Part shown: piece by piece, positions 25,567-63,912 of the stretch | Numbering within the stretch: position 1 is the first letter of the stretch | Layout of the letters: each line of letters begins with the position of its first letter | Assembly (NCBI GenBank): GCA_963758295.1 | Contig: CAVWUU010000002.1 | Location: 192,001 to 256,000 of the forward strand | DNA length: 64,000 nt | Direction of reading: 5' to 3' | Source: Candidatus Eremiobacteria bacterium | GTDB taxonomy: Bacteria > Vulcanimicrobiota > Vulcanimicrobiia > Vulcanimicrobiales > Vulcanimicrobiaceae | Made by a program: the position numbers and the translations under genes | The notes under the pieces: generated by a model | The model's database searches: none | Seen by the model: only the letters and a program-made list of their open reading frames with translations | Told to the model about the DNA's origin: nothing

Positions 25567-25675
25567 GAAATATGCTCTCCTCCGGGAGCGAGCTTACCCA
25601 TCTTTTACATTGCCGTTGCGATCAATTTTCAAGATGCTAAGGAAACGAAGCATGCGGTCGTGCGATGCTTCATGC

Positions 25676-41554: not shown

Positions 41555-41613
41555 TACCGGCCCTTCCCGGGCGCTCCACCGGAACCCGCTGCACGTTGAG
41601 CGAAGGTTTGCGC

Positions 41614-42748
41614 GTGATCGGCCGGTTGTGCATTTCGCTGGGAGCGCTTAAACGAAACGCCGAAGCCCTGCGCGCGCTCGTCGCCCCCAAACGGGCGGCA
41701 TTCGTCGTGAAGGGCAACGCATACGGACACGGGCTGCTCGAATGCGCCCTCGCAGCCGAGCCGTTTGCCGCAAAGCTGTGCGTATATTCCGTTGACGAAG
41801 CGGTCGTCTTACGCGACGGCGGCGTCACTGCGCCGATTCTCGTCCTCGGGCCGGTGGAACCCGTAGAACTGGATGTGGTTGCGGCGTTTGAGCTAGAAGT
41901 CGCGCTTTGGGATACAAGTGCGTTCGTCGCCCAACTCGCGGCGAGCCGCGCGTAAGCACCACACGCGCATCAAGGCGCACGTGAAGCTGAACACCGGCTT
42001 GAATCGCCTCGGCTTGGAGCCCGACGAACTAGCCGACGCAGTGGAAGACTTTTTGCACATTGCGGACCTCGAAATTGCCGGCATCTTTTCGCACCTCGCC
42101 TCCGCCGAGGAAATTGATTCGCCCTACACGATGCAGCAACTCGATCGCTTCCGCCACGCATACACGCATGCGGAACCCATCCTCGCGTCGCATGGCGTAG
42201 CGCCGGTCCAGCACATCGCGGCGTCCGCTGCCGCAATGCTCTGGCCGCAAACGCGTTTGGACATGTCACGGTTCGGGATCGCGCTCTATGGGCTGTGGCC
42301 ATCGCCGCAAACTCGCGAAGCGATGAACGGCGGCCGGCTGCCGCTCGAACCGGTCATGCGTTACGAAACCGCGCTAACCGTTGTGCGAACGGTCGCCGCC
42401 GGATCGCCCATCGGATACGGCACGAGCTTCCACGCACCGCGCGAACTGCGCGTCGGCATTGTTCCGCTGGGCTATGCGGACGGCATTCCGCGCGCGCTCT
42501 CCAATCGCGGCGCGGTCCTCATTGATGGCGCCCGCTGCCCCATTATCGGACGCGTGGCGATGAACATGTGCTACGTGGATGTCACTCATGCGCCGCACGC
42601 GCAGCCCGGCGCAAAGACGACGCTGCTCGGCCGCGACGGCGACGCTGAAATCACCGCTGATGACTGGGCGCAATGGGCCGACACGATCAATTACGAAATC
42701 ATAACCCGCATGCCCGCGCACTTGCGACGTGACTTTATCGATGATTGA
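41614..42748 (+). CDS. alr: alanine racemase (apparent +1 frameshift about 41943)
   Basis: VVKGNAYGHG (PLP Lys), KLNTGLNRLG, IGYG, GYADG, TINYE. Confidence 0.92.
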
Positions 42749-46464: not shown

Positions 46465-47403
46465 TTAAGCGACGTTGGCAACTTCGGCGCGCGAAAGTGC
46501 GTAGCCGATAAGGCGATCCACCAACGCTTCGTACGAAATGCCGACCGAGGCGCATGCGTCGGGAATCAAACTGGTTGGCGTCAATCCCGGAAGCGTATTG
46601 ACTTCCAAAATTTGCGGGCGGCCTTCCTTGCTCACGATGAAATCGGTCCGTGAGTAATCGCGCAAGCCGAGCAAACGATGCGTGGAAAGCGCCAACATTT
46701 GCAAGCGCGCAGCGAGATCTTCATCAATTTTCGCCGGCACGATGTGCGTGCTTCCGCCCGGTGCATATTTTGCATCGAACGTATAAAACTCGTCTTGGTT
46801 CGGCACCACTTCGATCACGGGGAGTGCTTCTTCGCCAAGCACGCCGCACGTAAACTCGCGGCCTTCAATAAACTCTTCAGCCATGATTTGGGCGTAAGAC
46901 TTTGCCGCGTTAATCATTGCCGACGTCCACTGCTCGTGCGTCTTCACGATGATGACGCCTTGCGAAGAACCTTCGAAGCGCGGTTTGATGACAAGCGGAA
47001 GATCGAGCGATCCCGGCAGCAACGGCAGCGTGCCGCCCGAGAGATCGAACAAGTCCCAAGCTGCGGTAGGCAACCCTTCCGCCGCAACAAGCTTCTTCGT
47101 TAGATGCTTGTCCATAGCAAGCGCCGAGGCTTCAACGCCGCTACCCGTATACGGGATGCCGAGATAATCGAGAATCGCCTGCGCGTGGCCGTCTTCACCA
47201 CCCGGTCCGTGCAGCGCGTTGAACACTACGTCGGGCGCGACTTCGCGAATGGCGTCGACGAAGCGCCGGTCGTAATCCAGCGACTGCGTGTCGTAGCCAA
47301 GCGACTGTAACGCGCGCATAACTCCCGATCCGGTTTGGATCGAGATCTCGCGTTCGGCGCTGCTTCCGCCCATAACGACGGCTACTTTAGCTTTTCTATT
47401 CAT
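46465..47403 (-). CDS. ddl: D-alanine--D-alanine ligase
   Basis: GGSSAEREIS, LHGPGGEDG, MDK, EGSS, AKY, LEVNTLPG. Confidence 0.97.
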   Translation of the reverse strand: MNRKAKVAVVMGGSSAEREISIQTGSGVMRALQSLGYDTQSLDYDRRFVDAIREVAPDVVFNALHGPGGEDGHAQAILDYLGIPYTGSGVEASALAMDKHLTKKLVAAEGLPTAAWDLFDLSGGTLPLLPGSLDLPLVIKPRFEGSSQGVIIVKTHEQWTSAMINAAKSYAQIMAEEFIEGREFTCGVLGEEALPVIEVVPNQDEFYTFDAKYAPGGSTHIVPAKIDEDLAARLQMLALSTHRLLGLRDYSRTDFIVSKEGRPQILEVNTLPGLTPTSLIPDACASVGISYEALVDRLIGYALSRAEVANVA

Positions 47404-47405
47404 TA

Positions 47406-48368
47406 TCACGCTTGCGCTTCATCGATAAAAACACCGACTAGATGCACTTCCAGCTGCAGTTCTACACCGAATTGTTCGCGAACGGCGCGGCGGACGCGTG
47501 CAAGAAGCGACGCGACGTCACGCGCACTCGCTCCACCGGTATTATTGATGAAGTTGGCGTGCAGGTGGGACACTTCCGCGCCGCCTACCCGCCATCCCTT
47601 AGCGCCGGCCGCTTCGATGAGCCGGGCCGCCTTGTCGCCCTCGGGATTGCGGAAACAAGATCCGGCGTTCGGAAGGGCGATGGGCTGCGTGCTCTTGCGG
47701 CGCACGAGGCGCGTCTGCATTTCACCGCGCACCTGCTTAGGGTCGCCTCGTTCGAACGAAAGCGTCACCCGAGAAACAACCGCGTCGCGCGCCAGCGTGG
47801 TGTGGCGATAGTAATACTGAACCGTAATGGGATGCGGATCCGGCTTCGCGGGCGACTGGACCCAAACTTCACGGACGAAATCGCCCATCTCGCGGTCCGT
47901 CCCGGCGTTCATGCGAAGCGAGCCGCCTACGGTCCCCGGAATACCCGAAAGGGAGCCGATGCCGATCGCGCCCAGGCTCGCCGCTTTGGCCGTGACGAGT
48001 GCCATGTTGGCAGCCGCCCCGGCTTCTACGATCACACGATCGCCCTCAATGCGCGCGTCGATCGCGGTGAACCCGACTCCCAGGCGCGCAACGATGCCAC
48101 GCATGCCGCCGTCGCCGATCAGCACGTTGCTGCCCGCACCTAAAACGAACCACGGGAGGCGGCGCTTGAAGCAGAGGCGCATCGCGGCTGCAAGTTCGGC
48201 TTCACTTTCCACCAGGAGCAACGCATCGGCCGGACCACCGACTTTCCACGAGGTGTACGGGCCCAACGGCGCATCGAAAGCCGCGCGCCCGGTAAAGATC
48301 TCGCGCAGCTGCGCGCGGTCGTCGTCGTTGAGGAGCGATTCGCAGGCCTGCGCCGTGGTGAGGCTCAC
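47406..48368 (-). CDS. murB: UDP-N-acetylmuramate dehydrogenase
   Basis: GAGSNVL, GIPGTVGG..MNAG, NAGSCFRNP, HANF, LEV. Confidence 0.97.
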   Translation of the reverse strand: MSLTTAQACESLLNDDDRAQLREIFTGRAAFDAPLGPYTSWKVGGPADALLLVESEAELAAAMRLCFKRRLPWFVLGAGSNVLIGDGGMRGIVARLGVGFTAIDARIEGDRVIVEAGAAANMALVTAKAASLGAIGIGSLSGIPGTVGGSLRMNAGTDREMGDFVREVWVQSPAKPDPHPITVQYYYRHTTLARDAVVSRVTLSFERGDPKQVRGEMQTRLVRRKSTQPIALPNAGSCFRNPEGDKAARLIEAAGAKGWRVGGAEVSHLHANFINNTGGASARDVASLLARVRRAVREQFGVELQLEVHLVGVFIDEAQA

Positions 48369-49741
48369 GCCCGGATGCCCGCCTCTTCCACTCGGTGCGC
48401 CAGCTTTGCGGCGATGTCGGTGATGTTTCCGGCGCCGAGCATGAGCACCAGCGATCCGCGCGGTGCTTCGTCGAAAATGCGTTCTTCCAAATCGTCGACG
48501 CGCGGCACGTACGTCACCCGCGTTCCGGCATTTGAAAGCGGTTCGCCGATAGAACGTTCGCTCACCCCGGGAATCGGCGTCTCCGACGCAGCATAAACGG
48601 GCGCAAGATACACTCGATCGCCGCCGCGCAGCGCGTCGGCAAAATCACGCGCCAGATACGCGGTGCGCGAGTAACGGTGCGGCTGGAACGCCACGATCAC
48701 CGGTCCTTGATGGTATTGACGCGCCGCAGCAATCGTCGCGCGGACAGCGGTTGGATGGTGCGCGTAATCGTCAACGACGATAAGCCGGTCGTTGCGCGTC
48801 AAGATGTCGAAGCGGCGGCGCACCCCGCGAAACGCGCGCAACCCATCGACGATTTGAGGGAACGGCACTTCGAGCTGCCGAGCCACGGCAATCGCTGCCA
48901 GCGCGTTCTGCACGTTGATCGCTCCGGGCACGGCAAGCTCGACCGTTCCGAGGCATACGTCCCCCACGATCGCATCAAACCGCATTCCTAATCCTTCGAA
49001 ATGCATGTTCGCAGCGCGAACGTCGGAACGAGGCCCGAAACCGAACGTTATCGTAGGTGCGCGGCGCGCGCGTTCGATGAGCGACGCAGCGAGCGGGTCG
49101 TCAACGCCGACGATGGCTGCACCGTCTTCGGGAAGTTTCGCGAGAAATTCACTAAACGCGTTGACGAGTTGCGGCAGTTCGTCGTCGCTCTGAAGATGAT
49201 CGTTTTCGATGTTCGTGACGATCGCGATTGCCGGATCGAGCAACGCAAACGACCCATCCGATTCGTCGGCTTCGGTGACGAACCACGGCGAGCTTCCGTC
49301 GTGAGCGTTCGTTCCTAATGCGCCGTCGATGCCGCCAAGCACGAGGCTCGCGTCCACTTTACCGGCGCGCAGCACACTGTGGACCATCGCGGTGGTTGTC
49401 GTTTTTCCGTGCGTTCCGCAAATCGCGATCCCGCGACGTTCGCGGACGAGTTTTGCCAGAAGTTCGCCGCGATGCAGCATCTGGACGCCGAGCCGCTGGG
49501 CAGCCACGTACTCGGGATTGCGCCGGTCGATAGCGGAGCTTACCACCACGGTCGCCGTGCCGTCGACATTTGCAGCGTCGTGACCGATCGCGATCTGAAC
49601 GCCTTCTTTTCGCAGCCGTTCGATCAGCGGGGTTGCGCGCACGTCTGAACCCGACACCGCATCGCCGCGAAGCAGCAGAATGCGCGCGATTGCGCTCATT
49701 CCAATGCCACCGACTCCCACGAAATGCCAGCTCTGTGCCAT
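48365..49741 (-). CDS. murC: UDP-N-acetylmuramate--L-alanine ligase
   Basis: GVGGIGMS, GTHGKTTT, EADESD, DDYAHHP, FQPHRY. Confidence 0.98.
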   Translation of the reverse strand: MAQSWHFVGVGGIGMSAIARILLLRGDAVSGSDVRATPLIERLRKEGVQIAIGHDAANVDGTATVVVSSAIDRRNPEYVAAQRLGVQMLHRGELLAKLVRERRGIAICGTHGKTTTTAMVHSVLRAGKVDASLVLGGIDGALGTNAHDGSSPWFVTEADESDGSFALLDPAIAIVTNIENDHLQSDDELPQLVNAFSEFLAKLPEDGAAIVGVDDPLAASLIERARRAPTITFGFGPRSDVRAANMHFEGLGMRFDAIVGDVCLGTVELAVPGAINVQNALAAIAVARQLEVPFPQIVDGLRAFRGVRRRFDILTRNDRLIVVDDYAHHPTAVRATIAAARQYHQGPVIVAFQPHRYSRTAYLARDFADALRGGDRVYLAPVYAASETPIPGVSERSIGEPLSNAGTRVTYVPRVDDLEERIFDEAPRGSLVLMLGAGNITDIAAKLAHRVEEAGIRA

Positions 49742-50859
49742 TACGCGCCGGTCTTTCGCGCCGTCATGGCCGCAATCCGGGCGAGAATTGTCGCAATGGG
49801 ATCGATCTCTTGGAGCCTCTGCGCAGCGCTTTGCATCTTGGCCAACCGTTCGCTTGCGGTGACATCAGCGAGGATTCCGCGCAGCTTGCCGGCTTGCAAT
49901 TCGCGATCGTTTACCACGACGGCGGCGCCTGTTTCGGCCAAGCGTTCAGCGTTGGCGCGTTGATGATCGTCCGCTGCATGCGGATACGGTATGAGAATCG
50001 ACGGTTTTCCGGTTGCGGCCAGTTCGCCGAGCGTCGATGCGCCGGCCCGCGCCAGTACGAGATCGCTTGCCGCGAAGGCATCCGAAAGATCGTGCAGGTA
50101 CGGACGAACGCCGCCGGATTCGGTATCTTTCCCCAGCGCGGAACGCACGCGATCGTATTCGCGCTCGCCCGTAACGTGAATCAATTGCCAGCCGTCCGGC
50201 AGCCCGTCGCTTTTCACAATCGACGTCAACGCATCGTTGATGGAGCGCGCACCCTGGCTTCCGCCCATCGCGAGCAACGTGCGTCGTTTCAACGAAAGCC
50301 CTAGACGCTCAAGCGCCCTTTCACGCTCGGGCAGCGCACGAAGCGACGCGCGCACCGGGATCCCCGTGTGCACGTACTTTCGCGCGAAACGTTCGTCGGC
50401 TTGCGGGAACGCACCCCACACTTCGTCGACGAGCGGCGCTAAGAGCCGGTTCGTCAATCCGGGATGGGCGTTGGGCTCGAGCAGCACGATCGGTGCGATG
50501 ATTCGCTTAAATGCACGAAGCAAACGCGCTGCCAGCACGACCGGAAAGCAGACGTATCCGCCGGTCGCAATGACAAGCGACGGTTTGATGCGCGAAAGAA
50601 TCGCAATGCTTTGCAGCGTTCCGCGCATGTTCGCGGAAAACGTCCTGATAAGTTCGAGCGACGGTTTGCGCGTGAGCGGCCGGCTGGAAACGGTCCGCAG
50701 CGGATACCCGGCTTTCGGCACGATGGTCGCCTCGAGCCGGTCGGCCGTCCCGACGAAGGTTACCGCAACTTGCGGGTCATTCAGCTTGAGCGCATCCGCA
50801 ATCGCAATCGCCGGATAGAGGTGCCCACCCGTTCCTCCGCCGGTGAATACGACGTTCAT
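49741..50859 (-). CDS. murG: lipid I N-acetylglucosaminyltransferase
   Basis: GGGTGGH, GGSQGA, RAGAST, HQRANA. Confidence 0.97.
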   Translation of the reverse strand: MNVVFTGGGTGGHLYPAIAIADALKLNDPQVAVTFVGTADRLEATIVPKAGYPLRTVSSRPLTRKPSLELIRTFSANMRGTLQSIAILSRIKPSLVIATGGYVCFPVVLAARLLRAFKRIIAPIVLLEPNAHPGLTNRLLAPLVDEVWGAFPQADERFARKYVHTGIPVRASLRALPERERALERLGLSLKRRTLLAMGGSQGARSINDALTSIVKSDGLPDGWQLIHVTGEREYDRVRSALGKDTESGGVRPYLHDLSDAFAASDLVLARAGASTLGELAATGKPSILIPYPHAADDHQRANAERLAETGAAVVVNDRELQAGKLRGILADVTASERLAKMQSAAQRLQEIDPIATILARIAAMTARKTGA

Positions 50860-50860
50860 G

Positions 50861-52034
50861 TTACTTTGCGCCGACGCGACGATACCGGCCGACGTTTACG
50901 ATGAGCGCAACGGCCACCAAGTTGACGATCAGCGAACTGCCGCCGAAGGAGATGAATGGCAGCGGCACGCCGGTAACGGGCCACGACGACGTCACGACGC
51001 CGATGTTGATGAAGGCTTGAATCATGATCAACGCAGTGCATCCGAGCGCAAGGAAAAACCCGAAGCGGTCCGGCGCCCCAATGGCAATTTTCACGGCACG
51101 GTACGCGAAGAGCACGAAGAGCGCGAGCACCGCAACGGTTCCCATCAAGCCCAGCTCTTCGCCGAGAACGGAGAAGATGAAGTCGGTGTACTGCTCGGGG
51201 AGATAAAAGAACTTCGCACGCGAAGCGCCGAGGCCCATGCCGAAGAGGCCGCCGCTTCCCAACGCAAGCAGCGACTGCACGATGTGGAAGCCGGTGTTCT
51301 GGGCGTCGCGCCACGGATCGATGAAGGCGAAGATGCGCGCGCGCTTATAAGGGCTCGCGATAATCGTCAAGATCACCGGCGGCACCGTCGCCGCAAGGAT
51401 CCAAACGAGATGCATTACTCGTGCGCCGGCCGCAAAGAACATCGTGAATGCCGTCATCGCGAGCAAACTCGCGGTGCCCATATCCGGCTCGGCGAGCACG
51501 AGCACCGCCATAAGAAAGACGGGCAGGCATAAGGGAAACAAGCCCGTTCGGCAAAGACGTGATACGCTCACCACGCTGCGAAAGCTTCGCGCTCAAGTAG
51601 ACGATGAGCGCAAGCTTCGCAAATTCGGATGGCTGAAAGCTTACGGACGACGCGCCGATCCAACGGCGAGCGCCGTTGACCACGATGCCCAGGTGCGGAA
51701 CAAGCACCATCAGCAACGTGACGATGGACGCGACCAATAGATACGGCGCCGCCTTTTTCAATTTGTGGTAGTCGATGCGATACGCGCCGTAGGCGCATAT
51801 GCCGCCGGCGATTAGCCACACGAACTGACGCTTGGCGTAAAATGCCGTGTCGTGATGTTCGGAGTACGCCGTCGCGCTCGATGCCGAGTAGATCATCACG
51901 AGGCCAATGCCGACGAGCGCGGCGACCGCCGCAAACAACAGCGTATCGGGCGGCGTCGAAATGTAGGAACGCAGGCCCGAGCTCTCCCGAGGCTCGTACC
52001 GCGGCCGTTCGGCAATGCTTCGCGCGTTACGCAC
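50861..52034 (-). CDS. ftsW: SEDS peptidoglycan polymerase FtsW (apparent +1 frameshift about 51540)
   Basis: MIYSAS, GARRWI, FQPSEFAK, EPDMGT, LPEQYTDFIF, GVPLPFISFGGS. Confidence 0.95.
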
Positions 52035-53428
52035 CGGCAGGTTCCCGCAATGCGGCTACGGCCGCGACGAATTTTTCGCCCCGGTCTTCGGCCGAACGGA
52101 ACATGTCGAACGAGGCGCATCCCGGCGAAAGCACCACCACGTCGCCGTGTTTCGCGAGTTCCCTCGCTTTGCGAACGGCATCGTCCATAGATGCGGCCTG
52201 AAGCGTCTTCACGCCGTTTGCCGCTTGGGAAATTTCGCCGGCTGCTTCGCCGATCGCAATCAACGCTTTCGCGCGTTGCTTGATCGCGACGCCAAGCTCG
52301 ATGAAGTCCGTGCCCTTCGAGCGGCCACCGGCGATCAACACGACGGGACGATCGTACGAGTGAAGCGCCGCGATCACCGAACCCGGATTCGTCGACTTCG
52401 AGTCGTCAACGTAGAGCACGCCGTCGATTTCGCCGACCGGTTCGAGCCGGTGCGGCATCGGCCGGAACGATGCGAGCGCATCGCGCAGCTGAACGGGATC
52501 GCATCCAACGGCGAGCGCGGCAAGCATCGCCGCCATGACGTTTTGCACGTTATGTTCGCCGGCAAGCGGAATATCCGAGCGGCGCAGCAGCCGCACCGGC
52601 CGCGGGTCGCCCACAATAGGCGCATACGTAAGCGTCCTCGCCGTGCAAATACATCGTCGCATTGTCGTAACGGTCGTGCAGCGTGAACCACAGCTGTCGC
52701 GAACGCATGCGCGGTTCGCCCAGCGCTACGTCCAGTGAAGCTACGCGCGCATCATCGAGGTTTCCAACGAAAAAATCGCCGGCCGATTGATTGGCGAAAA
52801 TGCGATACTTCGCTTCCGCGTATTCGTCCATCGAGTGGTAGCGGTCGAGATGGTCGGGCGCCACATTGAGCAGGACAGCCACGCGCGGCTTGAACGAGCG
52901 AATGGTCTCGAGTTGGAACGACGAGACTTCGGCGACAACCCAATCTTCCGGTCGGGCGCCGAGCACTTCGTTGATGAGCGGATTGCCGATGTTTCCGCCT
53001 ACGTAAACGGTGCGCCCACACTCCCGCAACAGATGCCCGATGAGCGCCGTCGTCGTCGACTTGCCTTTGGTACCCGTCACCGCAACGATGGGCGCCTTGC
53101 AGAGGCGGTAGGCGATTTCGATCTCACCGAATACGGGAACGTTGTGCTGTTGAACGACACGAACGACCGGCGACGTCAACGGAACCCCAGGCGATAGCAC
53201 TGCCGAGGTAAGCCTTTCGACGATCGAAGAAAGTTCGGACGGCTCGATGAACGTCGCGCCGCATGACTCGACCGTAGCGATCGCGTCTTCGAGCTCAGCG
53301 GGAGGCTTCTCGTCGGTTGCAAACACGGTTACGCCGCGGGAACGCAGGACTTGCGCCGAGGCAAGTCCACTCTTCCCAAGGCCGATCACGAGCATCGTTT
53401 GTTCTGCGTCGAACGTGCCGAGATTCAT
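52027..53428 (-). CDS. murD: UDP-MurNAc-L-Ala--D-glutamate ligase (apparent +1 frameshift about 52637)
   Basis: GLGKSG, SPGVP, GTKGKSTT, EVSSFQL, DHLDRY, HRLE, DDSKSTN, SPGCASFD. Confidence 0.95.
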
Positions 53429-54387
53429 CGAACGAGTACCCATCCCAGGAGCGAACAAAAGAGCGATGCGAACCAAAACCGCGCGGTGACTTTCGTTTCG
53501 GGCCAACCGCCGAGTTCAAAGTGATGGTGCAGGGGCGACATGCGGAAGATTCGCTTTCCGCGCGTCGCTTTGAAATACCCGACTTGCAGAATGACCGAGA
53601 GCGCTTCGGCCACGAAGACGGCGCCGATCAATATCAGCAGCAGCATCTCGCCTTCGAGAATCGCAACGCCCGAGAGCAATGCGCCGAGCGCGAGCGATCC
53701 CGTATCGCCCATGAACATTCTCGCCGGGTGGCGATTGTAGATGAGAAATCCGAGACACGCGCCGATGCCGAGCAACGAGGCGATACCGGCTGCCGGCATG
53801 GTAAGCTCAAACGCGATGGCGGCAAGCACCGCGAGCGGTGGAAGCATCGTTCCCGTCGCGAGTCCGTCCAAGCCGTCGGTCAGGTTTACCGCGTGGATCG
53901 TCCCGGTTACCGCGATGATGCCCAGCACGAGCCAAAGCCAGTGCGGCGCCACAAGCGCGTACGTTCCGGCGTGAAACAGCACGTCGCGCGGAAAGAGATT
54001 GTACGAATCGCCAAGCGCGCGCAAGAAAATAATGGCAAGCAGCGCCGTCGCAAGATATTTCGTGCGCGCGCTGAGTCCGAGATTACGGCCGCGACGGATC
54101 GCCAGATAATCGTCGATACATCCAACCGCACCACAACCGAGCACCAGCACCGCGAGCGCCGGCGCAAAAGGCGTATGCCACATCGCAGCCAGCGGCAACA
54201 TCGCAAGTCCGAAGAGGATACCGCCCATTGTCGGCGTGCCGGTCTTCTTCTGATGGGTTTCAGGCGCGTCTTCATAGGCGTGCTGGCGGAACTGCATGCG
54301 GCGCAGAAGCGGCAACAGTACTGCACCGCCCGCAACCGCAATGGCGAAGCCGATGACGAGGGCTAAAGCCATGGTCGAAAGCGTCAT
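53425..54387 (-). CDS. mraY: phospho-N-acetylmuramoyl-pentapeptide transferase
   Basis: KTGTPTMGG, VNLTDGLDGL, FMGDTGS, MSPLHHHFE. Confidence 0.98.
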   Translation of the reverse strand: MTLSTMALALVIGFAIAVAGGAVLLPLLRRMQFRQHAYEDAPETHQKKTGTPTMGGILFGLAMLPLAAMWHTPFAPALAVLVLGCGAVGCIDDYLAIRRGRNLGLSARTKYLATALLAIIFLRALGDSYNLFPRDVLFHAGTYALVAPHWLWLVLGIIAVTGTIHAVNLTDGLDGLATGTMLPPLAVLAAIAFELTMPAAGIASLLGIGACLGFLIYNRHPARMFMGDTGSLALGALLSGVAILEGEMLLLILIGAVFVAEALSVILQVGYFKATRGKRIFRMSPLHHHFELGGWPETKVTARFWFASLFCSLLGWVLVR

Positions 54388-55097
54388 GCGGCTGCGCCCT
54401 CTTCACGCAAGAGCGGGTTGCGGCCGCTTGCGCGCCACTTCAAGACGACGATCGGCGTTTGCTCGTCGCCATTGCCGTGCGGATTATCCAGCAGGGCGCG
54501 TTCCACGGTTTCACGATCCACGCCGGTGGATGCGCCGAGCACTTTCGCCTTCTCCAAATCGTTCGCGTCGACGACGACGCATGCAACGCCCGTTCGTTCG
54601 AACACCGCCTGCGAAAACGCATCGGGCTCCCGGGGCGCAAACACGATCGCGCGTTCGTACGGCGGCAACGTTCCGGTGTACCCGTCGAGCGCCGTAATCG
54701 CTTCGCCCATCACTTCGTAAAATACGCCACGCCGGCCGCGCAGACGTCCCAGTACGTGCATCACGGCGGCATACACGACCTTCGCCGGGCCGACTTCGTC
54801 GATGACGAGTTGCAGCGATTCCGGTTGATTGACTGTGGCCAGCGCCCCCGCACGGCGCGACAGCGCATAGGCGAGTTTGGAAGGGCGCACGTACTCGGCG
54901 GGAACGAACTCGCCTTGCGCGATGGCGACGGCTGTTTCCGAAATGGCGATCGCGTCGCCGGGACGCGCGATACCGTTCACGGCATCCGAAACGATGGAAA
55001 GCAAATCATCGCCCGGACGAACCAAACGCGTACGAACCGGAATTGCGACGAGTCCTGGCGGGACTTCGGGACGGGTAACGGCAAGCGTGCGGCTCAT
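54384..55097 (-). CDS. CofE-like (coenzyme F420-0:L-glutamate ligase family) amide ligase inside the dcw operon
   Basis: IPVRTRLVRPGDDL, GDAIAISETAVAIAQG, VVDAND and DNPHGNGDEQTPIVV match the CofE/F420-ligase pattern; ATGA overlaps with murF and mraY. Confidence 0.75.
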   Translation of the reverse strand: MSRTLAVTRPEVPPGLVAIPVRTRLVRPGDDLLSIVSDAVNGIARPGDAIAISETAVAIAQGEFVPAEYVRPSKLAYALSRRAGALATVNQPESLQLVIDEVGPAKVVYAAVMHVLGRLRGRRGVFYEVMGEAITALDGYTGTLPPYERAIVFAPREPDAFSQAVFERTGVACVVVDANDLEKAKVLGASTGVDRETVERALLDNPHGNGDEQTPIVVLKWRASGRNPLLREEGAAA

Positions 55098-56470
55098 CCG
55101 CGGAACTCCTCGACGATTTCTTCTAATTTGTATTTTCGGGAGCCCTTAAGCAAAACCGCATCACCCCGACAAGCATTTACGCGCAGCCACTGCGCCGCTT
55201 CGCTATTCGAGCCAAATCGGAAAATGCGCTCCGAGGCAAGCCCTGCATTATGCGCGCCGAGCGCAAGCTCGTCTGCGAAGTCGCCGCCGAATAGCGCGAC
55301 GTCGACGTGTATCGCCGCGGTATGCGCGCCGACGCGGCGATGCAGTTGTGCCGCTTCGTCCCCAAGCTCGGCCATACTGGAGAGCAAAGCAATACGCCGT
55401 CTCGCCGGCTCGGCAGCAAAGGCATCGAGCGCTGCAATCGTACCGCTTGCATTGGCGTTATACGCGTCGTAGATCAGCCGGATACCGTCCACGTCGATCG
55501 CTTCGTAACGCCCTTTCGGCAGCTCGATCGTTTCCATTGCGTGCGCAACCTCTCCAAAGTCCGCACCGAGTTCCAACGCTGCAGCGGCGGCTGCCGCCAA
55601 GTTGGAACGGTTGTGATCGCCTGGAACGGTAAGGTTTACCGCGCACTCGCGAACGACGCCGTCGAAGCGGTGCACGAACCAATCGCGGCCCAACAGGGCG
55701 GTGAGTCTCGAACGTAACGGCATGGTCGCGCCCGGCGCGCCGGCCAAAAACCAGTGCGGCGCTTCCGGCAACGTCGACGCGCGCGCGCGCGATGCTCGAT
55801 CGCATTCATTGACGATCGCACGTGCGCCCGTTTCAAAGATCGACCACTTCGTCGTTTCGAGCCGCTCGCGCGAGCCCATGATTTCCAAGTGCGCGTCACC
55901 GACATTCGTGAGGACCGCAACATCCGGTTTCGCAATTTCGGTAAGGACGGCGATGTCGCCGTAGTGGCGCGCGCCCATCTCCACGACGAGTACGTCGTGA
56001 TCTTCGTTCGACGCGTTCAGCAATAATTTGCTTACGCCGATTTCATTGTTTTCGTTCGCCGGCGCGGCCAAAACCCGATCGCCGTAACGCGTGGCGAGCA
56101 GTTGCGCGGTGAAAAACTTCGTCGTCGTCTTGCCGGCGCTGCCGGTGATTGCGACGACCCGGCCGGTGAAACGGTCACGCGCCAAACCTGCAAGCGTCAT
56201 GTACGCTCTCAACGTATCTTTAACTAGCAGCGCCGTTGCACTGGGCGGCAGCACCGACGCATCGTCGACAACGAATGCAGCTGCACCCTTCTCCGCCGCT
56301 TCCGCAACGAAGGCATGACCGTCAAAGTGTTCGCCTCGGAGCGCCAAAAACGTATCGCCGGGTTGCAACGAACGCGTGTCCGTCGTAATACGAAGCAACG
56401 CCGGTGCGCGATCGGCGTTGATGACGGAGGCACCCGCTGAAGCACGCGCATCTTCGAACGCCAGCTTCAC
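55094..56470 (-). CDS. murF: UDP-MurNAc-tripeptide--D-Ala-D-Ala ligase
   Basis: TDTR, FDGH, GSAGKTTTK, NNEIG, EMGA, DAYNAN, MAELG, KGSR. Confidence 0.97.
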   Translation of the reverse strand: MKLAFEDARASAGASVINADRAPALLRITTDTRSLQPGDTFLALRGEHFDGHAFVAEAAEKGAAAFVVDDASVLPPSATALLVKDTLRAYMTLAGLARDRFTGRVVAITGSAGKTTTKFFTAQLLATRYGDRVLAAPANENNEIGVSKLLLNASNEDHDVLVVEMGARHYGDIAVLTEIAKPDVAVLTNVGDAHLEIMGSRERLETTKWSIFETGARAIVNECDRASRARASTLPEAPHWFLAGAPGATMPLRSRLTALLGRDWFVHRFDGVVRECAVNLTVPGDHNRSNLAAAAAAALELGADFGEVAHAMETIELPKGRYEAIDVDGIRLIYDAYNANASGTIAALDAFAAEPARRRIALLSSMAELGDEAAQLHRRVGAHTAAIHVDVALFGGDFADELALGAHNAGLASERIFRFGSNSEAAQWLRVNACRGDAVLLKGSRKYKLEEIVEEFRG

Positions 56471-57924
56471 GCGTGGGTCTCCCGCCGAATCAACGCGCGC
56501 CGCGCCACCGCGACGTCATCGAACGGCAGCGTTTCAGCACCGACGATCTGGTACGTCTCATGCCCTTTGCCGGCGATCAGCACAACGTCACCGGGGTGTG
56601 CTTCAAGAATGGCGCGTTCGATTGCTGCACGACGATCGGGTTCAACCGTATGGGCGCGACGGCCCAAACCGCCTTCGATTTCGTGGATGATCGTCAACGG
56701 GTCTTCACTGCGCGGATTGTCGTTGGTCAAATAGATACGATCGGCCGTAGCGGCTGCGACCCGTCCCATTTCGGGGCGCTTTCCGCGATCGCGATCGCCG
56801 CCGCAGCCGAACACGACCGAGAGATGATGCGGATGCGCCTCGCGCAAAGCCTTAAGCGCATGCTCTAATGCATCGGGCGTGTGCGCGTAGTCGACGACGA
56901 CGTCGACGTCCGCCACCCCAACGTGTTCCATACGCCCCGGGACGCGTTCCAACGTCGCAAGCCCATGCGCGCTGCTCTTGTCTTCGATGCCCAGCGTGCG
57001 CGCTACGGCGATAGCCGCGAGCGCGTTACTTATGTTGAAGCGGCCGGGCATCGCAATTGAAAACTTCGTTCTGTCCAGATCGAAGCGGCTGCCGCTCGTC
57101 GTGGCTTCGACTTGCGACGGGACCAAATCCGCACCTAGACGCAGCCCATATGTCGTCACCGGAATGCGTCCGCGCAGTTGGGCCGCCCATCGTTCACCGT
57201 ACGGATCGTCGGCATTCAATACGGCGGCTTCGGTCATCGCGAAGAGCCGGTGCTTTGCTGCGGCATAGGCTTCGACCGTCTCGTGAAAGTCGAGATGGTC
57301 CCGCGTAACGTTCGTTAGCGCGGCAACGCGGAAGCGAATATCTTCAACGCGATCGAGCGCCAGCGCATGCGAGCTTACTTCCATTGCAACGCCTTGCGCG
57401 CCCGCGTCGCGCATCTGTGCCAAGAGCGAATGAAGTTCCGGCGGCAGCGGCGTCGTATTCGCGAGGGGCCAGGTTCGCTCGCCCAATTCCGCGCCGACCG
57501 TTCCGATAACGCCGCACGGACGTCCCGCGGCGTTACAGATCGCCGCAATCATCCGCGTTACCGTCGTCTTGCCGTTGGTTCCCGTCACGCCCGCTACATC
57601 AAGTACGTGCGAAGGATCGCCGTAAAACGCGGCCGCGATCGTAGATAACGCGCGGCGCGTATCGGGAACGTAGACGACCGTTGCATCGCCTGGGGGTACG
57701 GCGCGGCCTTGCTTTACAACGATAGCCGATGCGCCATTCGCAATGGCTTGCGCTACGAAGGCGTGGCCGTCGGCGTGCTCGCCGGCAATCGCAACAAAGA
57801 GCGACCCGGGACGAACTTCGCGCGAATCGAGCGTCACGGCTTCAATCTTGATTGAGGTATCACCGGCAAATTCCGTTGCCGCCGGTAAACGGCCCACGAG
57901 CGCTTGGAGTTCTACCGCGCTCAC
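56467..57924 (-). CDS. murE: UDP-MurNAc-dipeptide--meso-diaminopimelate ligase
   Basis: GTNGKTT, MEVSSH, DHLDFH, VDYAHTPD, GCGGDRD, DNPR (meso-DAP signature), AGKGHE. Confidence 0.97.
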   Translation of the reverse strand: MSAVELQALVGRLPAATEFAGDTSIKIEAVTLDSREVRPGSLFVAIAGEHADGHAFVAQAIANGASAIVVKQGRAVPPGDATVVYVPDTRRALSTIAAAFYGDPSHVLDVAGVTGTNGKTTVTRMIAAICNAAGRPCGVIGTVGAELGERTWPLANTTPLPPELHSLLAQMRDAGAQGVAMEVSSHALALDRVEDIRFRVAALTNVTRDHLDFHETVEAYAAAKHRLFAMTEAAVLNADDPYGERWAAQLRGRIPVTTYGLRLGADLVPSQVEATTSGSRFDLDRTKFSIAMPGRFNISNALAAIAVARTLGIEDKSSAHGLATLERVPGRMEHVGVADVDVVVDYAHTPDALEHALKALREAHPHHLSVVFGCGGDRDRGKRPEMGRVAAATADRIYLTNDNPRSEDPLTIIHEIEGGLGRRAHTVEPDRRAAIERAILEAHPGDVVLIAGKGHETYQIVGAETLPFDDVAVARRALIRRETHA

Positions 57925-59672
57925 GGATGCTTAGCCGCCATTTTGGGAACGGGCGACGGCGCGGGCAGAACGCCGCTGTGCAACATGGCCGCACGCGCAA
58001 TCTTCGTAAACGCGGGCGCCGCCACGATGCCGCCGTAGTAGGCGCCGACCGGCCGTTCCACTTTTACGTAAACCACGTAACGCGGATGCTCCGCGGGAAT
58101 CATTCCAATGAACGACGCGGCGTAGGCGCCCGGTTCGTAACGGCCATCTACCACCATCTGCGCGGTACCGGTCTTTCCGGCGGTTGTGTAGCCGGGAATT
58201 TGCGCGGACGGATTTCCCGTGCCCGCGACCACGACTTGACGCAAATACTGGCGCAGAATTGCCGCGGTCTTTTCCGAAAACACGCGCCGCTCGACTTCGC
58301 GCGGATATTGGTAAATCGTCTTGCCTTGCTGATCGTCAATAGCGCGCAAGATGTGCGGCCGCAGCAAAATGCCGCCGTTCGCAATCGCGCAATAGAAGCG
58401 TGCCATCGCAACCGGCGTAACCGAAACGCCTTGACCGAACGACATCGTCGCAAGCGACGAGTCGCTCCAATCGGCCGGCGCCGGAACGATGCCCGGATTC
58501 TCGCCTGGAAGACCAACCTCCGTCGGCGTGCCGAATCCGGCTCTGCGCTCCATCTCGTAGAATTTCTGCGAACCAACGTACATGCCGACTTCCGCGGCGC
58601 CGACGTTGTGCGAATATTGAATGATCTGTCCGAGCGTTTCGGTGGGGCCGGTATCCGGCATGTCGTCGTCGGCATTGTGAATGACGTTGCCGCCGACGAG
58701 CAACGTCTCACGTGCCGGAAAACGCATCGAGGGCGTCACTTTGCCGGAGTCGAGCGCGACCGCCGCGGTGAGAAGCTTGAACGTGGATCCCGGTTCGTAC
58801 GCGTCCATAACGGCGCGATCGCGGCGCGCGGAGTCGCTGAACTTCCAGAAGCGATTTGGATCGAACTTCGGCATGTTCGACATGGCGAGAATTTCGCCAC
58901 TCCACGGATCCATCACGATGGCGGTTCCGTCGAGCGCGTGAAACTTCGTTACTTGCTCCGCGAGCGCCGACTCGGTGACGTACTGCAGATACGAATCGAG
59001 CGTCAGCTGTAGATTCAATCCGGGCTGGGCCGCTTTCACGACGGTTTCGTGACCGAACGGAATCGGGCGCCCAAATTCGTCGGTTTCAAGCGTGACGCGT
59101 CCGGACGTGCCTTTCAGCAGGTTGTCGAACTCGTACTCGAGGCCGTCCAGTCCATTTTCGTCGGTACCCACAAAGCCGAGAAGCGTGGACGCCGTGTCAC
59201 CGACCATGTCGATGCGGCGGCCGGTGTCTTCTTCTTTCAGTTGCACGCCGGCGAGGTCGAGCGCGCGAACCTTGTCGGCAACGTCGCTTGGAACCTTGCG
59301 AGCGATCCACACGAACCACCGGGAGCGATCGTGCATGGCACTCACAACAGTTGGATCGAGCTTCCCGAAGAAGCCTTGGAGTTTCTGAACTGCTGCGTCG
59401 GGGTCTAAGAGGTCGTGCGGAACGACGTAGACGCTTTCGGAGGGGAGCGATCGCACCAGCACTGAGCCGTCGCGATCAGTGATGTTTCCGCGGCGCGCAA
59501 AAACTTCAACCGTGTCCGAACGTTGCGCGAGAGCCTCGCGTGCGTAGACCGGCCCCTTGAAGACCTGCACGAAATAGAGCTTTGCCGTTAAGAAAAGCCC
59601 AATTGCCAAGCACACATAGAAAAACACTTTCGCGCGCGTCGGGGCGACGCGCGCGAAGGTCCGTTGATGCAT
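57921..59672 (-). CDS. ftsI: class B penicillin-binding protein (FtsI/SpoVD-like)
   Basis: RGNITDRDG, EPGSTFK (SxxK), SHN, KTGTAQ. Confidence 0.92.
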   Translation of the reverse strand: MHQRTFARVAPTRAKVFFYVCLAIGLFLTAKLYFVQVFKGPVYAREALAQRSDTVEVFARRGNITDRDGSVLVRSLPSESVYVVPHDLLDPDAAVQKLQGFFGKLDPTVVSAMHDRSRWFVWIARKVPSDVADKVRALDLAGVQLKEEDTGRRIDMVGDTASTLLGFVGTDENGLDGLEYEFDNLLKGTSGRVTLETDEFGRPIPFGHETVVKAAQPGLNLQLTLDSYLQYVTESALAEQVTKFHALDGTAIVMDPWSGEILAMSNMPKFDPNRFWKFSDSARRDRAVMDAYEPGSTFKLLTAAVALDSGKVTPSMRFPARETLLVGGNVIHNADDDMPDTGPTETLGQIIQYSHNVGAAEVGMYVGSQKFYEMERRAGFGTPTEVGLPGENPGIVPAPADWSDSSLATMSFGQGVSVTPVAMARFYCAIANGGILLRPHILRAIDDQQGKTIYQYPREVERRVFSEKTAAILRQYLRQVVVAGTGNPSAQIPGYTTAGKTGTAQMVVDGRYEPGAYAASFIGMIPAEHPRYVVYVKVERPVGAYYGGIVAAPAFTKIARAAMLHSGVLPAPSPVPKMAAKHP

Positions 59673-59699
59673 CAGGACGCGACCCGTGATACCGCTCCG

Positions 59700-60152
59700 C
59701 TACCGCGCTCGCACGCGTGGAACGCCGCCGCCGCCGAACCAGCCGGCAACCGACAACCAGGGTGCAAAACGATCGTTCGTAACGGTGGGCAAGCCGAGCT
59801 TGACGACGGCAAACTGTTGCGCTTCGTGCATGCCAAGCTTCGAGGCGACACGGGCGAGGCGTTCGTCGGAACGCAGCACCGCGATGCGGTCGTCGAAACG
59901 CGCGGTTTCTTCTTGGAGATCGTCGCGCTGTTGATGCGCTTTAGCAACGGCATAACTGAGGCTGGTTACATTCGACGTGAGCATCACATACCCAAGCAGA
60001 GAAACGAGCACCACGCCGAGCACGGCGCATACGCGAAAGATTCCATTGTAGCGGGCGCGCGAATTGCGAACGATACGCACGCTGGTTGCGGTGCGCGCGC
60101 TTCGTGGGTTCTTGATGCGGGGTTGTGACTCAATAAGTTGTGGCTGGATCAT
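59700..60152 (-). CDS. ftsL: cell division protein FtsL-like
   Basis: Single TM plus coiled coil ending ERLARVASKLGM; position between rsmH and ftsI. Confidence 0.7.
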   Translation of the reverse strand: MIQPQLIESQPRIKNPRSARTATSVRIVRNSRARYNGIFRVCAVLGVVLVSLLGYVMLTSNVTSLSYAVAKAHQQRDDLQEETARFDDRIAVLRSDERLARVASKLGMHEAQQFAVVKLGLPTVTNDRFAPWLSVAGWFGGGGVPRVRAR

Positions 60153-60159
60153 CCTTGTC

Positions 60160-61033
60160 CTAACTGGCCTTCCGTTGCGCCGCGCGCATCTTTGCACTCC
60201 GTGCGCGCGGATTGTTCGCCATTTCTTGATCGCTGGGAAGTAGCGGCTTCTTGGTGAGAACGTTCAGCCGCTCGTCGCCGCGAAAGGTTTGCTTCACGAT
60301 GCGATCCTCAAGCGAGTGAAAGCTTATGACCACCACGCGCCCCGCGCCTCGAAGCTGATCGATGGCCGAGGTGAGCCCTTCGCGCAGAACGTCTAGCTCG
60401 TCGTTCACGGCTATGCGCAACGCCTGGAAGACGCGCGTCGCCGGATGAATACGCTCGCGCTTGCCCGGACGGTGGACGATGCCGGCCACCATCTGCGCGA
60501 ATTCCGTCGTGGTCGTCGGCAAGCGGCCCCGAGTTGCGCCGTTCCACGATGGCGTGCGCAATCCGACGCGCGGCGCGCTCTTCACCGTAGTAATAGAAGA
60601 TGTCCGCGAGCTCGCTCTCGCTCGCCGTGTTCAGGACTTCGTAAGCACTCTGCCCCTTATGCGGATCCATTCGCATGTCGAGCGGAGCAGACTCACGGAA
60701 AGAAAAGCCTCGGCTTGCATCATCCAGCTGCATCGACGAAACCCCCAAATCGAAAAGCACTCCGTCCACGAACTCCACGCCGCACTCGTCGAGGACGCGA
60801 CGAAGCTCCGAGAAGTTGGCTTGAACGAAGGTGAACGACGGATGCTCGATTGCCCGTGCGCGATCCACCGCGTGCGGATCCGCATCGATGGCGATGAGGC
60901 GTCCCGTATCCAAGCGGTCCAAGATCGCTCGCGTGTGCCCGCCCGCACCAAACGTCGCATCGACGTAAATCCCATCCGGCCGGATCGCCAGATACTCCAG
61001 CGCCGGCTCCAATAGCACCGAAACGTGATTCAT
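60160..61033 (-). CDS. rsmH: 16S rRNA m4C1402 methyltransferase (apparent +1 frameshift about 60528)
   Basis: HVSVL, DATFGAGGH, DLGVSSMQLD, HPATRVFQALRI, SFHSLEDR, NPRARSAK. Confidence 0.96.
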
Positions 61034-61045
61034 GCACACATACCA

Positions 61046-61489
61046 TTAGTAGATGCCGAGGTCGGCCATGAACTCGGCCACCTCGCCCTCCGGCGCGGCA
61101 TGTTCCGCGTAGCGTTCTTTGGCCCAAATCTCCACGCGCGTCAGAGTGCCGACCGAGACGACCTCCCGGTCGATGCCGGCATACGCCCGCAAAGCGGCGG
61201 GTATCAGAAGGCGGCCCTGGGCGTCGCACGCGACTTCCTCGGTGTTGGCGAAGATGTGGCGGACGAGCTGACGATACCGCTGGTCTTTACGCGGCGCTTC
61301 CTCTAAACGTGCGCAAACCTGACCCCAAGTAATGCTCGGGTAGAGAGCAAGGCATGGGTCCGGCTCGGCGATCGTGATAAAGAAGCCCGCACCAAGCCGC
61401 TCGCGGAAACGCGCAGGAACGATAAGCCGGCCTTTATCATCTAAGGCATGCTCGACCGAACCCGTAAAGCGCGGGAGATCCGCGTGCAC
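61046..61489 (-). CDS. mraZ: division/cell wall cluster transcriptional repressor MraZ
   Basis: DDKGRLIVP and DAQGRLLIP repeats, RVEIW. Confidence 0.96.
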   Translation of the reverse strand: MHADLPRFTGSVEHALDDKGRLIVPARFRERLGAGFFITIAEPDPCLALYPSITWGQVCARLEEAPRKDQRYRQLVRHIFANTEEVACDAQGRLLIPAALRAYAGIDREVVSVGTLTRVEIWAKERYAEHAAPEGEVAEFMADLGIY

Positions 61490-62706: not shown

Positions 62707-63912
62707 TGTGTAAACCGAGATTTCGTCTGACAGTTGGCGCATGATCGCGTCGCTGAGTGTCAGATGGTTCCAATGGCGCTAAACTCAGGCTGCAAATAGC
62801 TTCTCCTTGGCGAGTTCCAAGCTGTCGAAAAATGTCTGCATCGGCGTCTTGCCGTAACACCAGCGCCCTTGATGCGTACGTTCTATGTTGTACTCGCGCA
62901 TCCATGCATCGAGATCGGCTTGCAGCTCGTCGACCGTATGGTAAATCTTCTTGCGGAATGCCACGCGGTAGAATTCGTTAAGCATTGTCTTATGAAGGCG
63001 TTCAACGATGCCGTTTGTTTGGCGGCTCTTTGCCTTGGTGCGCGTGTGATCGATGTCTTCGATTGCGAGGTACAACTCGTAAGGATGTTTCTGGACGTCT
63101 CCGCAGTACTCGGTTCCACGATCGGTGAGGATTCGGCTCACGCGAATATCGTGCTCTTCGAAGAATGGAATGACCCGATCATTGAGCAGATCTACTGCAG
63201 TGATTGGCGTCTTTTGCTGGTACAGCTTCGCGAATCCAACTTTGCTATACGTGTCGACGAAGGTCTGCTGATATACACGGCCAACACCTTTGAGCGTGCC
63301 GACGTAGAACGTGTCTTGTGCGCCGCAATAACCGGGGCATTCACTCTCGAACTCGCCGTGCGCGTCCTTCTCGTTCTGCGCCTTCTCAAGTGCTGCGAGC
63401 TGCGCTTCGGTCAGAACCAAACCTTCCTGTGCGCTTTTTGCTTCTAGTGCTTTCAATCGTTTCTTCATCGTCTCAAGATCGTGCCGCTGCCAAACGCAGC
63501 GCACGCCGGCGGGAGAAACGGTCATTGCACGTTTTTTGAGTTCATTGGCGACGCGCACTTGGCCGAACGCCGGCTGTTCTATTGCGAGCGTCACGATCGC
63601 ATCTTCGATCGTTGGATCGATTCGGTTCTTCAGGATCGGTTTTCGGCGGGAGATTTCCGCGAGCGCTGCCTCACCGCCGGTTTCATAGAGCTCTTGGAAG
63701 CGATAGAAACTATCGCGACTAAACCCCATCATCTTGCAAGCCTGCTGCACGTTCCCCAACTGCTTTGCAAGGTTGAGCAGGCCGACTTTGGCACGAATGA
63801 CTTTGCGTTCGGTGGTCAAGATCGTCTCCTTCGTCGCCGACGTCACGCTCAGTGACGCGGCAGGATGCGATGCGACCTTCGCCAACTGTCCGATTAAGTC
63901 TTAGCTAATACA
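62707..63912 (-). mobile_element. IS481-family insertion sequence (about 1.2 kb) with CCTAATG target-site duplication
   Basis: TGT...ACA ends; imperfect terminal IRs sharing GACAGTTGGCG; CCTAATG at 62700-62706 and 63913-63919. Confidence 0.9.
62785..63819 (-). CDS. IS481-family DDE transposase
   Basis: HTH N-terminus; [40 protein letters not shown] before TTG 63819. Confidence 0.95.

Follow-up and report, generated by a model that had tools for sequence, protein, structure and literature searches.

The stretch of DNA analysed here, 64,000 nucleotides long and called the window throughout, comes from a Candidatus Eremiobacteria bacterium (contig CAVWUU010000002.1, positions 192,001 to 256,000) and carries, within its division and cell wall (dcw) gene cluster, a gene lying between murF and mraY that we call X (54384..55097, minus strand). 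Within the CofE superfamily, X belongs to a divergent and uncurated branch, tied to peptidoglycan by its position, its domain fusions and its phyletic pattern. It is not a gene of coenzyme F420 synthesis. X probably carries out an undescribed step of peptidoglycan wall building; we propose that it acts on peptidoglycan precursors together with MurF, at the MurF/MraY step, and that it is most likely a nucleoside triphosphate-dependent amide ligase for a precursor carboxylate, and we give this reading a probability of about one half. Action at this stage is plausible because X is independent of F420, holds a conserved place in the dcw cluster and has been fused independently to wall enzymes.

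Conserved position of X between murF and mraY

Consistent with what a first, sequence-only reading of this DNA had described, X is an open reading frame (ORF) of 237 amino acids (aa) which overlaps both murF and mraY by ATGA in the dcw operon, as confirmed by ORF analysis, the sequence and a Pfam scan (Table 1). The frame begins with ATG and is intact. One ATGA is common to the murF stop and the X start (minus strand cgcggATGAgcc, i.e. ...cggATGAgcc...) and another to the X stop and the mraY start (minus strand gccgcATGAcgc, i.e. ...cgcATGAcgc...). The encoded protein has no signal peptide and no Mur-ligase domain; PF01996 is its sole Pfam match, and it stands outside the Mur ligase family (MurC-F, Mpl, MurT, FolC). 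Among the best 120 of 1764 matches, the nearest proteins share 77-92% identity with X along their full length and, when named, originate from Eremiobacterota/Vulcanimicrobiota metagenome-assembled genomes (MAGs) (Aquilonibacter, Baltobacteraceae, Vulcanimicrobiaceae).

Synteny was evaluated by tblastn of the window's MurF, X and MraY on the 113 loci of the class Eremiobacteria that hold X (33 from the genome search and 80 from a contig scan). In 103 of these 113 loci murF is on the strand of X and ends no more than 250 bp upstream of it, and in 109 mraY starts directly downstream of X; the remaining loci are contig ends or cases in which the best high-scoring segment pair covers only part of the neighbour, and no counterexample to the murF-X-mraY order was met among the 113. 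The conservation of the dcw location in relatives, which the sequence-only reading had called for, is therefore established within the class. Mean identity to the window reaches 71.0% for X, against 55.8% for MurF and 63.3% for MraY, and at the level of single loci X exceeds MurF in 98/99 and MraY in 96/99. X is under very strong purifying selection.

In 15 loci of sister classes, dcw genes are missing from the roughly 6 kb on either side of the X homolog (38-42% identical), and nothing X-like was found upstream of mraY in the five genomes examined there, murF abutting mraY directly in three of them. The insertion of X in the dcw cluster is therefore a feature of the class Eremiobacteria. The 80 loci of the contig scan, made with alignment A2, are all of Eremiobacteria type. 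No context from other phyla was gained from them. Five carry names from elsewhere (Dormiibacterota, Limnocylindria, Binatus, Acidiferrales, Rhodospirillales) but sit in genomes with X-type matches like the others, and they opened no way into other phyla.

Domain architectures of the X family

An exhaustive HMMER search of 1.84 billion representatives returned 738 relatives at E <=0.001, in many of which the X domain is the C-terminal part of a longer protein. Architectures were established from a Pfam scan of 25 relatives and from the precomputed domains of 77 long matches. Briefly, 20 of the 77 long matches are MurF-X proteins (700-771 aa, Eremiobacteraceae type) and 25 combine an AsnB-type glutamine amidotransferase/asparagine synthase with X (860-934 aa; the named ones belong to Firmicutes and Dormibacterota MAGs). 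Among the 25 scanned relatives, five are Amidase_3-X proteins (the named ones from one Spirochaetia and one Bacillota MAG) and one is an X-transmembrane-Polysacc_deac_1 protein, named as a PgdA/CDA1-family deacetylase. A TPR-X architecture is also present.

The natural MurF-X fusions (proteins P0298-P0316) include one, at L036:4650-6776 (+) on a 2.37-Mb contig, which is a single open frame in the DNA with a low-complexity linker of about 55 residues, and in another genus of the Eremiobacteraceae-type family (L038) murF and X lie in different frames. The amidase part of the Amidase_3-X proteins scores best against CwlD (92 bits, below the cut-off), and no obvious signal peptide was seen in the two amidase fusion proteins inspected. 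MurNAc-L-Ala amidases and PgdA-type deacetylases have peptidoglycan as their substrate polymer, and AsnB-family enzymes (AsnB1, LtsA, AsnH) amidate stem-peptide carboxylates in several Gram-positives. Our strongest argument is that four independent fusions to wall enzymes, together with the dcw position, tie the X family to peptidoglycan.

Two other sources of fusions brought little. Four gene calls that join X to MraY (P0297, P0317 and others) probably arise from a frameshift or read-through at the ATGA overlap and were left unused; the N-terminus of MraY is periplasmic, with which an N-terminal X fusion would clash. A metagenome scan seeded with the AsnB-X fusions picked up AsnB motifs (79 of 80 loci are plain AsnB), and its single fusion locus, L152, adjoins dnaE and is uninformative.

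The family extends far beyond the host phylum, one of soil bacteria, and its recurrent fusions to wall enzymes are new. Sporomusa (Negativicutes), Thermodesulfobium and a Limnochordales MAG are among the members that carry a name. We found no NCBIfam model covering it and, in the CC-licensed PMC and bioRxiv, no literature linking it to peptidoglycan, plastids or Negativicutes. Its motifs (PVxT, GD, ISExxVAIxQG, GxFY, IDG/D, VDANDL and DNPxGNxDEQTP), drawn from a 48-sequence alignment (A1) and a 20-sequence one (A3) that also covers plants and cyanobacteria, are all present in X. Seventeen positions are invariant from plants to Eremiobacteria: T23, D48, E54, Q61, G103, G124, F126, Y127, G131, D138, P146, P155, D177, N179, N205, P206 and G208. 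As a set, these residues read like an active site.

Independence from coenzyme F420

The source assembly consists of 6 contigs totalling 3.03 Mb and is 82% complete. The absence of F420 genes from the window, already pointed out in the sequence-only reading, extends to this whole assembly, in which, at its 82% completeness, neither CofD (TIGR01819) nor CofC (PF01983) nor FO synthase was found, and X is the only PF01996 match. Two CofH-like radical-SAM genes of the source genome are MqnE (418.9 bits) and MqnC (448 bits, over the cut-off) of the futalosine menaquinone pathway. Such MqnE- and MqnC-like genes, adjacent on contig 1 of G000 (842809-845760; L002, L003), are easily taken for the FO synthase CofH. 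A cultured relative is reported to contain menaquinone-9 (MK-9; excerpt of PMC9758169), which agrees with the futalosine-pathway genes.

Profiling against cofD had been suggested at the outset. X-like matches occur in 198 of 201 genomes sampled from the phylum (169/170 among the high-quality ones) and in 112/113, 3/3 and 15/15 genomes of the three GTDB families of the class, whereas CofD occurs in 38 of the 201 and in none of the same three families (0/113, 0/3 and 0/15, i.e. 0/131). These counts include one unpublished genome, G128, and nothing depends on it alone. In sister classes that possess the F420 pathway, a separate, true CofE (247-266 bits) adjoins CofD in all five genomes tested, and G058 is the only one of the five in which the X-type copy matched the same CofE model, with 21.6 bits. 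Where the pathway exists, the true CofE is thus a paralog distinct from X. X is not an F420 gene.

The idea that X is a genuine F420-0:L-glutamate ligase can draw on its PF01996 match over the cut-off and on the public records that carry this name, but it is effectively refuted: X scores 28 bits against equivalog cut-offs of 180-274, its genome has no detected CofC, CofD or FO synthase and its class no CofD, a true CofE sits next to CofD as a separate paralog where the pathway exists, and the structural alignment stops at CofE residue 226 of 248. Family members, plants included, are widely named 'coenzyme F420-0:L-glutamate ligase' in organisms devoid of the F420 pathway, and this name is a propagated misannotation.

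Fold of X and relation to CofE

Both checks proposed at the start, a profile search and a structural comparison with CofE, support the relationship. X matches PF01996 (F420_ligase) with 50.5 bits (gathering cut-off 25) over profile positions 2-112 of 218 only, and the CofE equivalogs TIGR01916 and NF009809 with 28.1 and 28.2 bits (cut-offs 180.65 and 274) over residues 23-102 only. The AlphaFold2 (AF2) model built from A1 has a mean predicted local distance difference test (pLDDT) of 92.8 and a predicted template modelling score (pTM) of 0.89. Foldseek against the PDB retrieved CofE of A. fulgidus alone (2PHN, 7ULD, 2G9I; best E 1.6e-9, TM 0.57, 19% identity), all non-CofE matches of the model having E >1. 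A VIA search of 48,161 chains ranked 2phn_A first (Z 14.9, root-mean-square deviation 3.2 Å, 185 residues aligned; runner-up Z 4.3), with model residues 15-232 laid on chain residues 2-226. Profile comparison by hhalign with five true CofE sequences from sister-class genomes gave a probability of 98% (E 2.4e-13, 150 aligned columns). A homodimer prediction (two copies, A1) scored 0.00 and is not used as evidence either way.

X thus has the fold and core motifs of the CofE/FbiB N-terminal domain: the GD motif, the (E/Q)G of 'AEGR', the next Pro/Ala, the Gly of 'HG', 'AG', the proline of 'LLP' and an Asp-bearing strand. It differs from CofE by its low identity (19-23%, far under the equivalog cut-offs), by an all-helical insert at residues 74-135, by the lack of a match for about 20 C-terminal CofE residues and by its location in a dcw cluster of a genome without the F420 pathway. 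Opposite the CofE 'TDTN'/'SDSF' strand lie D177, N179 and D180 of X, in a register that differs between the HMMER and hhalign alignments.

Membrane-anchored long form

In the commonest architecture of the family, of about 390-460 aa, a hydrophobic helix at the N-terminus is followed by a domain some 140 residues long, then by a disordered linker and finally by the X domain. In the model of a 404-aa Xenobia-type protein (pLDDT 88.4), a helix is predicted at 2-24 and a beta-sandwich at 30-168, followed by a low-confidence linker and the CofE-like domain. The sandwich gave generic Ig-like/LEA-2-like matches only (Z <=9) and no functional lead. Sister classes of Eremiobacterota have this long form, and so do many cyanobacteria (Planktothrix, Oscillatoria, Leptolyngbyaceae, Trichocoleus, Thermostichus); loci L039-L053 and proteins P0131, P0135, P0156 and P0397, among others, are examples.

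Among the best 120 of 3181 matches to the Marchantia protein, streptophyte homologs are 52-80% identical to it and come from liverworts (Marchantia, two Riccia species, Calypogeia), mosses (Ceratodon, Sphagnum), a lycophyte (Diphasiastrum), ferns (Adiantum, Ceratopteris), a gymnosperm (Cryptomeria) and streptophyte algae (Mesostigma, Chlorokybus, Klebsormidium, Mesotaenium and five Closterium records). No angiosperm or chlorophyte was seen in these best 120 matches, although the list reaches down to cyanobacterial proteins of 49% identity, and most of the cyanobacterial and plant members have no precomputed Pfam match. In the Atlas, the clusters closest to the Marchantia protein are cyanobacterial. 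Plant proteins have an N-terminal extension where others have the helix.

In sister classes, the neighbours of the long form are variable and include no cell-wall genes. In 3 of 13 loci, folD lies directly downstream (L039:3958-4752, with a start/stop overlap, L040:7204-8070 and L042; two GTDB families), and in L044 a methylenetetrahydrofolate reductase (MTHFR)/homocysteine methyltransferase gene follows the long-form homolog. This adjacency may indicate a housekeeping neighbourhood or a folate link.

Proposed function and alternatives

We propose that X is a cytoplasmic CofE-fold enzyme recruited into peptidoglycan precursor synthesis. It would be physically coupled to MurF and placed beside MraY, with UDP-MurNAc-pentapeptide, or lipid I/II at the membrane face, as its substrate. 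CofE forms, at the expense of GTP, an acyl-phosphate on a lactyl or gamma-glutamyl carboxylate, which is then attacked by the amine of glutamate (excerpts of PMC10861534 and PMC8498797). By analogy, X would activate a free carboxylate of the precursor with a nucleoside triphosphate, after which an amine would be joined to it as an amide; ligase activity, nucleotide, substrate carboxylate and amine are what we infer. The candidate carboxylates would be, in order of preference, (i) the alpha-carboxylate of D-Glu, which is the usual site of amidation and of substitution by glycine or polyamines, (ii) the epsilon-carboxylate of meso-diaminopimelate and (iii) the lactyl carboxylate of MurNAc, which is chemically nearest to the first substrate of CofE and would make the amidase fusions a recycling module. 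Eremiobacteria appear to have exchanged the membrane helix and sandwich of the long form for a link to MurF beside MraY, by coupling or by fusion, which would amount to a swap of localisation.

Related systems offer partial parallels. In Staphylococcus, MurT/GatD, which amidates D-Glu of lipid II, converts a stem-peptide carboxylate to an amide via a phosphorylated intermediate after MurF (excerpt of PMC3266927), like the reaction proposed for X. MurT, however, has a Mur-ligase fold and a glutaminase partner; X has no Mur-ligase domain and no glutaminase neighbour was found in the window, but an AsnB-type amidotransferase is fused to X in other phyla. Aslfm, the D-Asp ligase of Enterococcus and Lactococcus, is cytoplasmic, acts on UDP-MurNAc-pentapeptide and is paired with AsnH of the AsnB family. 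This pairing is analogous to the AsnB-X fusions, although Aslfm, an ATP-grasp enzyme, activates the carboxylate of a free amino acid whereas X would activate that of the precursor.

Several observations weigh against the ligase proposal. In place of the invariant CofE motif T.K..SKAEGR, X has S-E-T-A-V-A-I-A-Q-G-E, with both lysines replaced. The sequence-only reading had taken SET for the counterpart of 'SK': the loss of lysine holds, but the register does not, since both the HMMER and the hhalign alignments pair 'SK' with A58-I59 ('VAIAQG') and not with S53-E54-T55. The arginine of the CofE 'EGR' is Glu in the window's X (Arg in the family consensus), and the arginines of FGRPWR have no counterpart. 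Because these lysines and arginines are replaced, nucleotide binding in the manner of CofE is not assured. The metal-ligand Asp of CofE, which we take to be the metal-binding residue of the active site, is paired with D177 by HMMER and with N179 by hhalign, a mismatch of register. The nucleotide precursors of moss are reported to be the canonical UDP-MurNAc-DAP-pentapeptide (excerpt of PMC9434261), so that a plastid modification would come later, at the lipid stage (consistent with the membrane anchor), or be absent. The variable surroundings of the long form and its adjacency to folD count on the same side. Most angiosperms lack the full set of peptidoglycan genes and keep only MurE, MurG, MraY and DDL (excerpt of PMC10784329). 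The streptophyte distribution of the long form matches the full plastid peptidoglycan gene set. We regard this pattern as supportive but not decisive, because it is shared by other traits that are lost in angiosperms, such as the dark-operative protochlorophyllide reductase (DPOR). Of the precursor modification at the MurF-MraY step suggested by the sequence-only reading, the stage is thus made plausible by the dcw position and the wall-enzyme fusions, whereas the replaced CofE lysines leave its chemistry less secure.

The same replaced lysines and arginines would suit a protein that serves peptidoglycan without being a ligase, either as a stem-peptide hydrolase or trimming enzyme or as a non-catalytic adaptor or regulator handing UDP-MurNAc-pentapeptide from MurF to MraY. 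The MurF fusions and the coupling to mraY fit such a role, as does the membrane anchor of the long form, which would serve localisation, and a conservation above that of the neighbours is expected of a protein with several binding partners. The many acidic and amide residues invariant from plants to Eremiobacteria, however, resemble an active site rather than a docking surface, and the fusion partners AsnB, amidase and deacetylase are without exception enzymes that have wall components as their targets; we consider this explanation rather unlikely. A recycling ligase, functionally similar to Mpl, which would put a salvaged stem peptide, or an amino acid, back onto the lactyl carboxylate of UDP-MurNAc, seems to us improbable. 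Its attraction is that the first substrate carboxylate of CofE is of the same lactyl kind (excerpts of PMC10861534 and PMC8498797) and that the amidases fused to X, devoid of an obvious signal peptide, are MurNAc-L-Ala amidases cleaving exactly that bond; but a salvage enzyme would hardly be near-universal in the phylum and more conserved than MurF and MraY, and both position and fusion favour the product of MurF over UDP-MurNAc.

The repurposing of a CofE-family protein has a precedent in FolC2 (CT611) of C. trachomatis, a COG1478/CofE homolog outside F420 synthesis in a host without cof genes, whose role was predicted from gene clustering and which complements E. coli folC (excerpt of PMC1971073). 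If X were such a gamma-glutamyl ligase for folate or another cofactor, the folD and MTHFR/homocysteine methyltransferase genes beside some long forms would find an explanation. FolC2, however, stands in for an absent FolC and lies among folate genes, whereas the source genome has a canonical FolC on contig 4 (TIGR01499, 345.6 bits, cut-off 162.65), X lies in the dcw cluster at all 113 class loci and not with folate genes, and its fusion partners are wall enzymes and not folate enzymes, which makes this origin of function very improbable.

If the precursor-ligase proposal is true, a conserved extra enzyme at the MurF/MraY junction would add a step to the cytoplasmic pathway from MurA to MraY, which is regarded as complete and is a major antibiotic target. 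X is constrained more tightly than MurF and MraY, and its domain recurs fused to four wall enzymes. The presence of the same domain in cyanobacteria and in exactly the plants that retain a plastid set of peptidoglycan genes makes the question testable in cyanobacteria, Marchantia and mosses and would bear on plastid wall chemistry, and the finding also corrects the widespread F420 misannotation.

Possible polyamine attachment and outer-membrane tethering

A more specific version of the proposal would make the X family a widely conserved, hitherto overlooked enzymatic step shared by Eremiobacterota, cyanobacteria, several lineages of Firmicutes (diderm ones such as Sporomusa and Limnochordales among them) and the plastids of non-angiosperm streptophytes, namely the long-sought ligase that would couple UDP-MurNAc-pentapeptide or lipid I/II, through the alpha-carboxylate of its D-Glu, to an amine. 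Putrescine, cadaverine, N-acetylputrescine and amino acids are candidates for this amine. We hold this version to be unlikely. Negativicutes are documented to have polyaminated peptidoglycan, and Cyanophora cyanelles to carry N-acetylputrescine at residue 2 (excerpts of PMC10628300 and PMC9434261). Such attachment of diamines or polyamines to D-Glu (Selenomonas, Veillonella, Cyanophora) resembles the chemistry proposed for X, which would form an amide on the D-Glu alpha-carboxylate at the precursor stage. The X family occurs in Sporomusa, in a Limnochordales MAG and in cyanobacteria. No paper naming a gene for diamine or polyamine attachment was found in the CC-licensed PMC and bioRxiv.

The tether to the outer membrane through polyamines and S-layer homology (SLH) domains, envisaged in the sequence-only reading, finds no phyletic support in the class. 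SLH domains were not found in the 82%-complete source genome and occur in 29 of 61 class genomes while X is in nearly all, so that the two do not co-vary, and the frames that hold the SLH matches mostly span 500-1100 aa, in contrast to OmpM porins. On the other side stand the family members in Sporomusa and Limnochordales, and the polyamine idea keeps a low probability. An agmatinase gene (TIGR01230, 175.6 bits, cut-off 174.3), putrescine-forming, lies at 40766-41554 (-), about 5 kb beyond the end of ddl and divergent from alanine racemase; it is relevant only under the polyamine hypothesis.

Genomic context in the window

The features of the locus are collected in Table 1. In the dcw cluster, the ftsL position is occupied by a small ORF and the penicillin-binding protein (PBP) is of class B, according to the Pfam scan.

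Table 1. Gene X and neighbouring features of the dcw cluster (window coordinates)
Feature	Position	Strand	Basis
X, CofE-fold protein (P0001), member of an uncurated PF01996 subfamily	54384..55097	-	ORF, Pfam, AF2 model, VIA, hhalign
murF, UDP-MurNAc-tripeptide:D-Ala-D-Ala ligase	55094..56470	-	Pfam Mur_ligase, Mur_ligase_M, Mur_ligase_C; position
mraY, phospho-MurNAc-pentapeptide translocase	53425..54387	-	Pfam Glycos_transf_4 and MraY_sig1
ATGA overlap, murF stop/X start (translational coupling)	55094..55097	-	Sequence
ATGA overlap, X stop/mraY start (translational coupling)	54384..54387	-	Sequence
dcw cluster, mraZ-rsmH-(ftsL)-PBP-murE-murF-X-mraY-murD-ftsW-murG-murC-murB-ddl	46465..61489	-	Pfam scan

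Within the region 50861-53506, murD (52550-53506 / 52027-62) and ftsW (51345-52034 / 50861-51574) are each broken across two overlapping frames, and rsmH and alanine racemase are likewise found in two overlapping frames (regions 59700-61229 and 41596-42748). These splits look like indel errors of a long-read assembly and not pseudogenes, because murD is a single frame in the relative L036 and because the assembly is only 82% complete despite its 6 contigs. A transposase-like ORF (HTH_29 and rve_3 integrase core) is located at 62785-63885 (-), 1.3 kb upstream of mraZ. Finally, two paralogous proteins of response-regulator/HD-GYP type (HD_5) are encoded at 18154-19212 and 25610-26659 (+), 6 kb apart, where they flank amino-acid permease genes.

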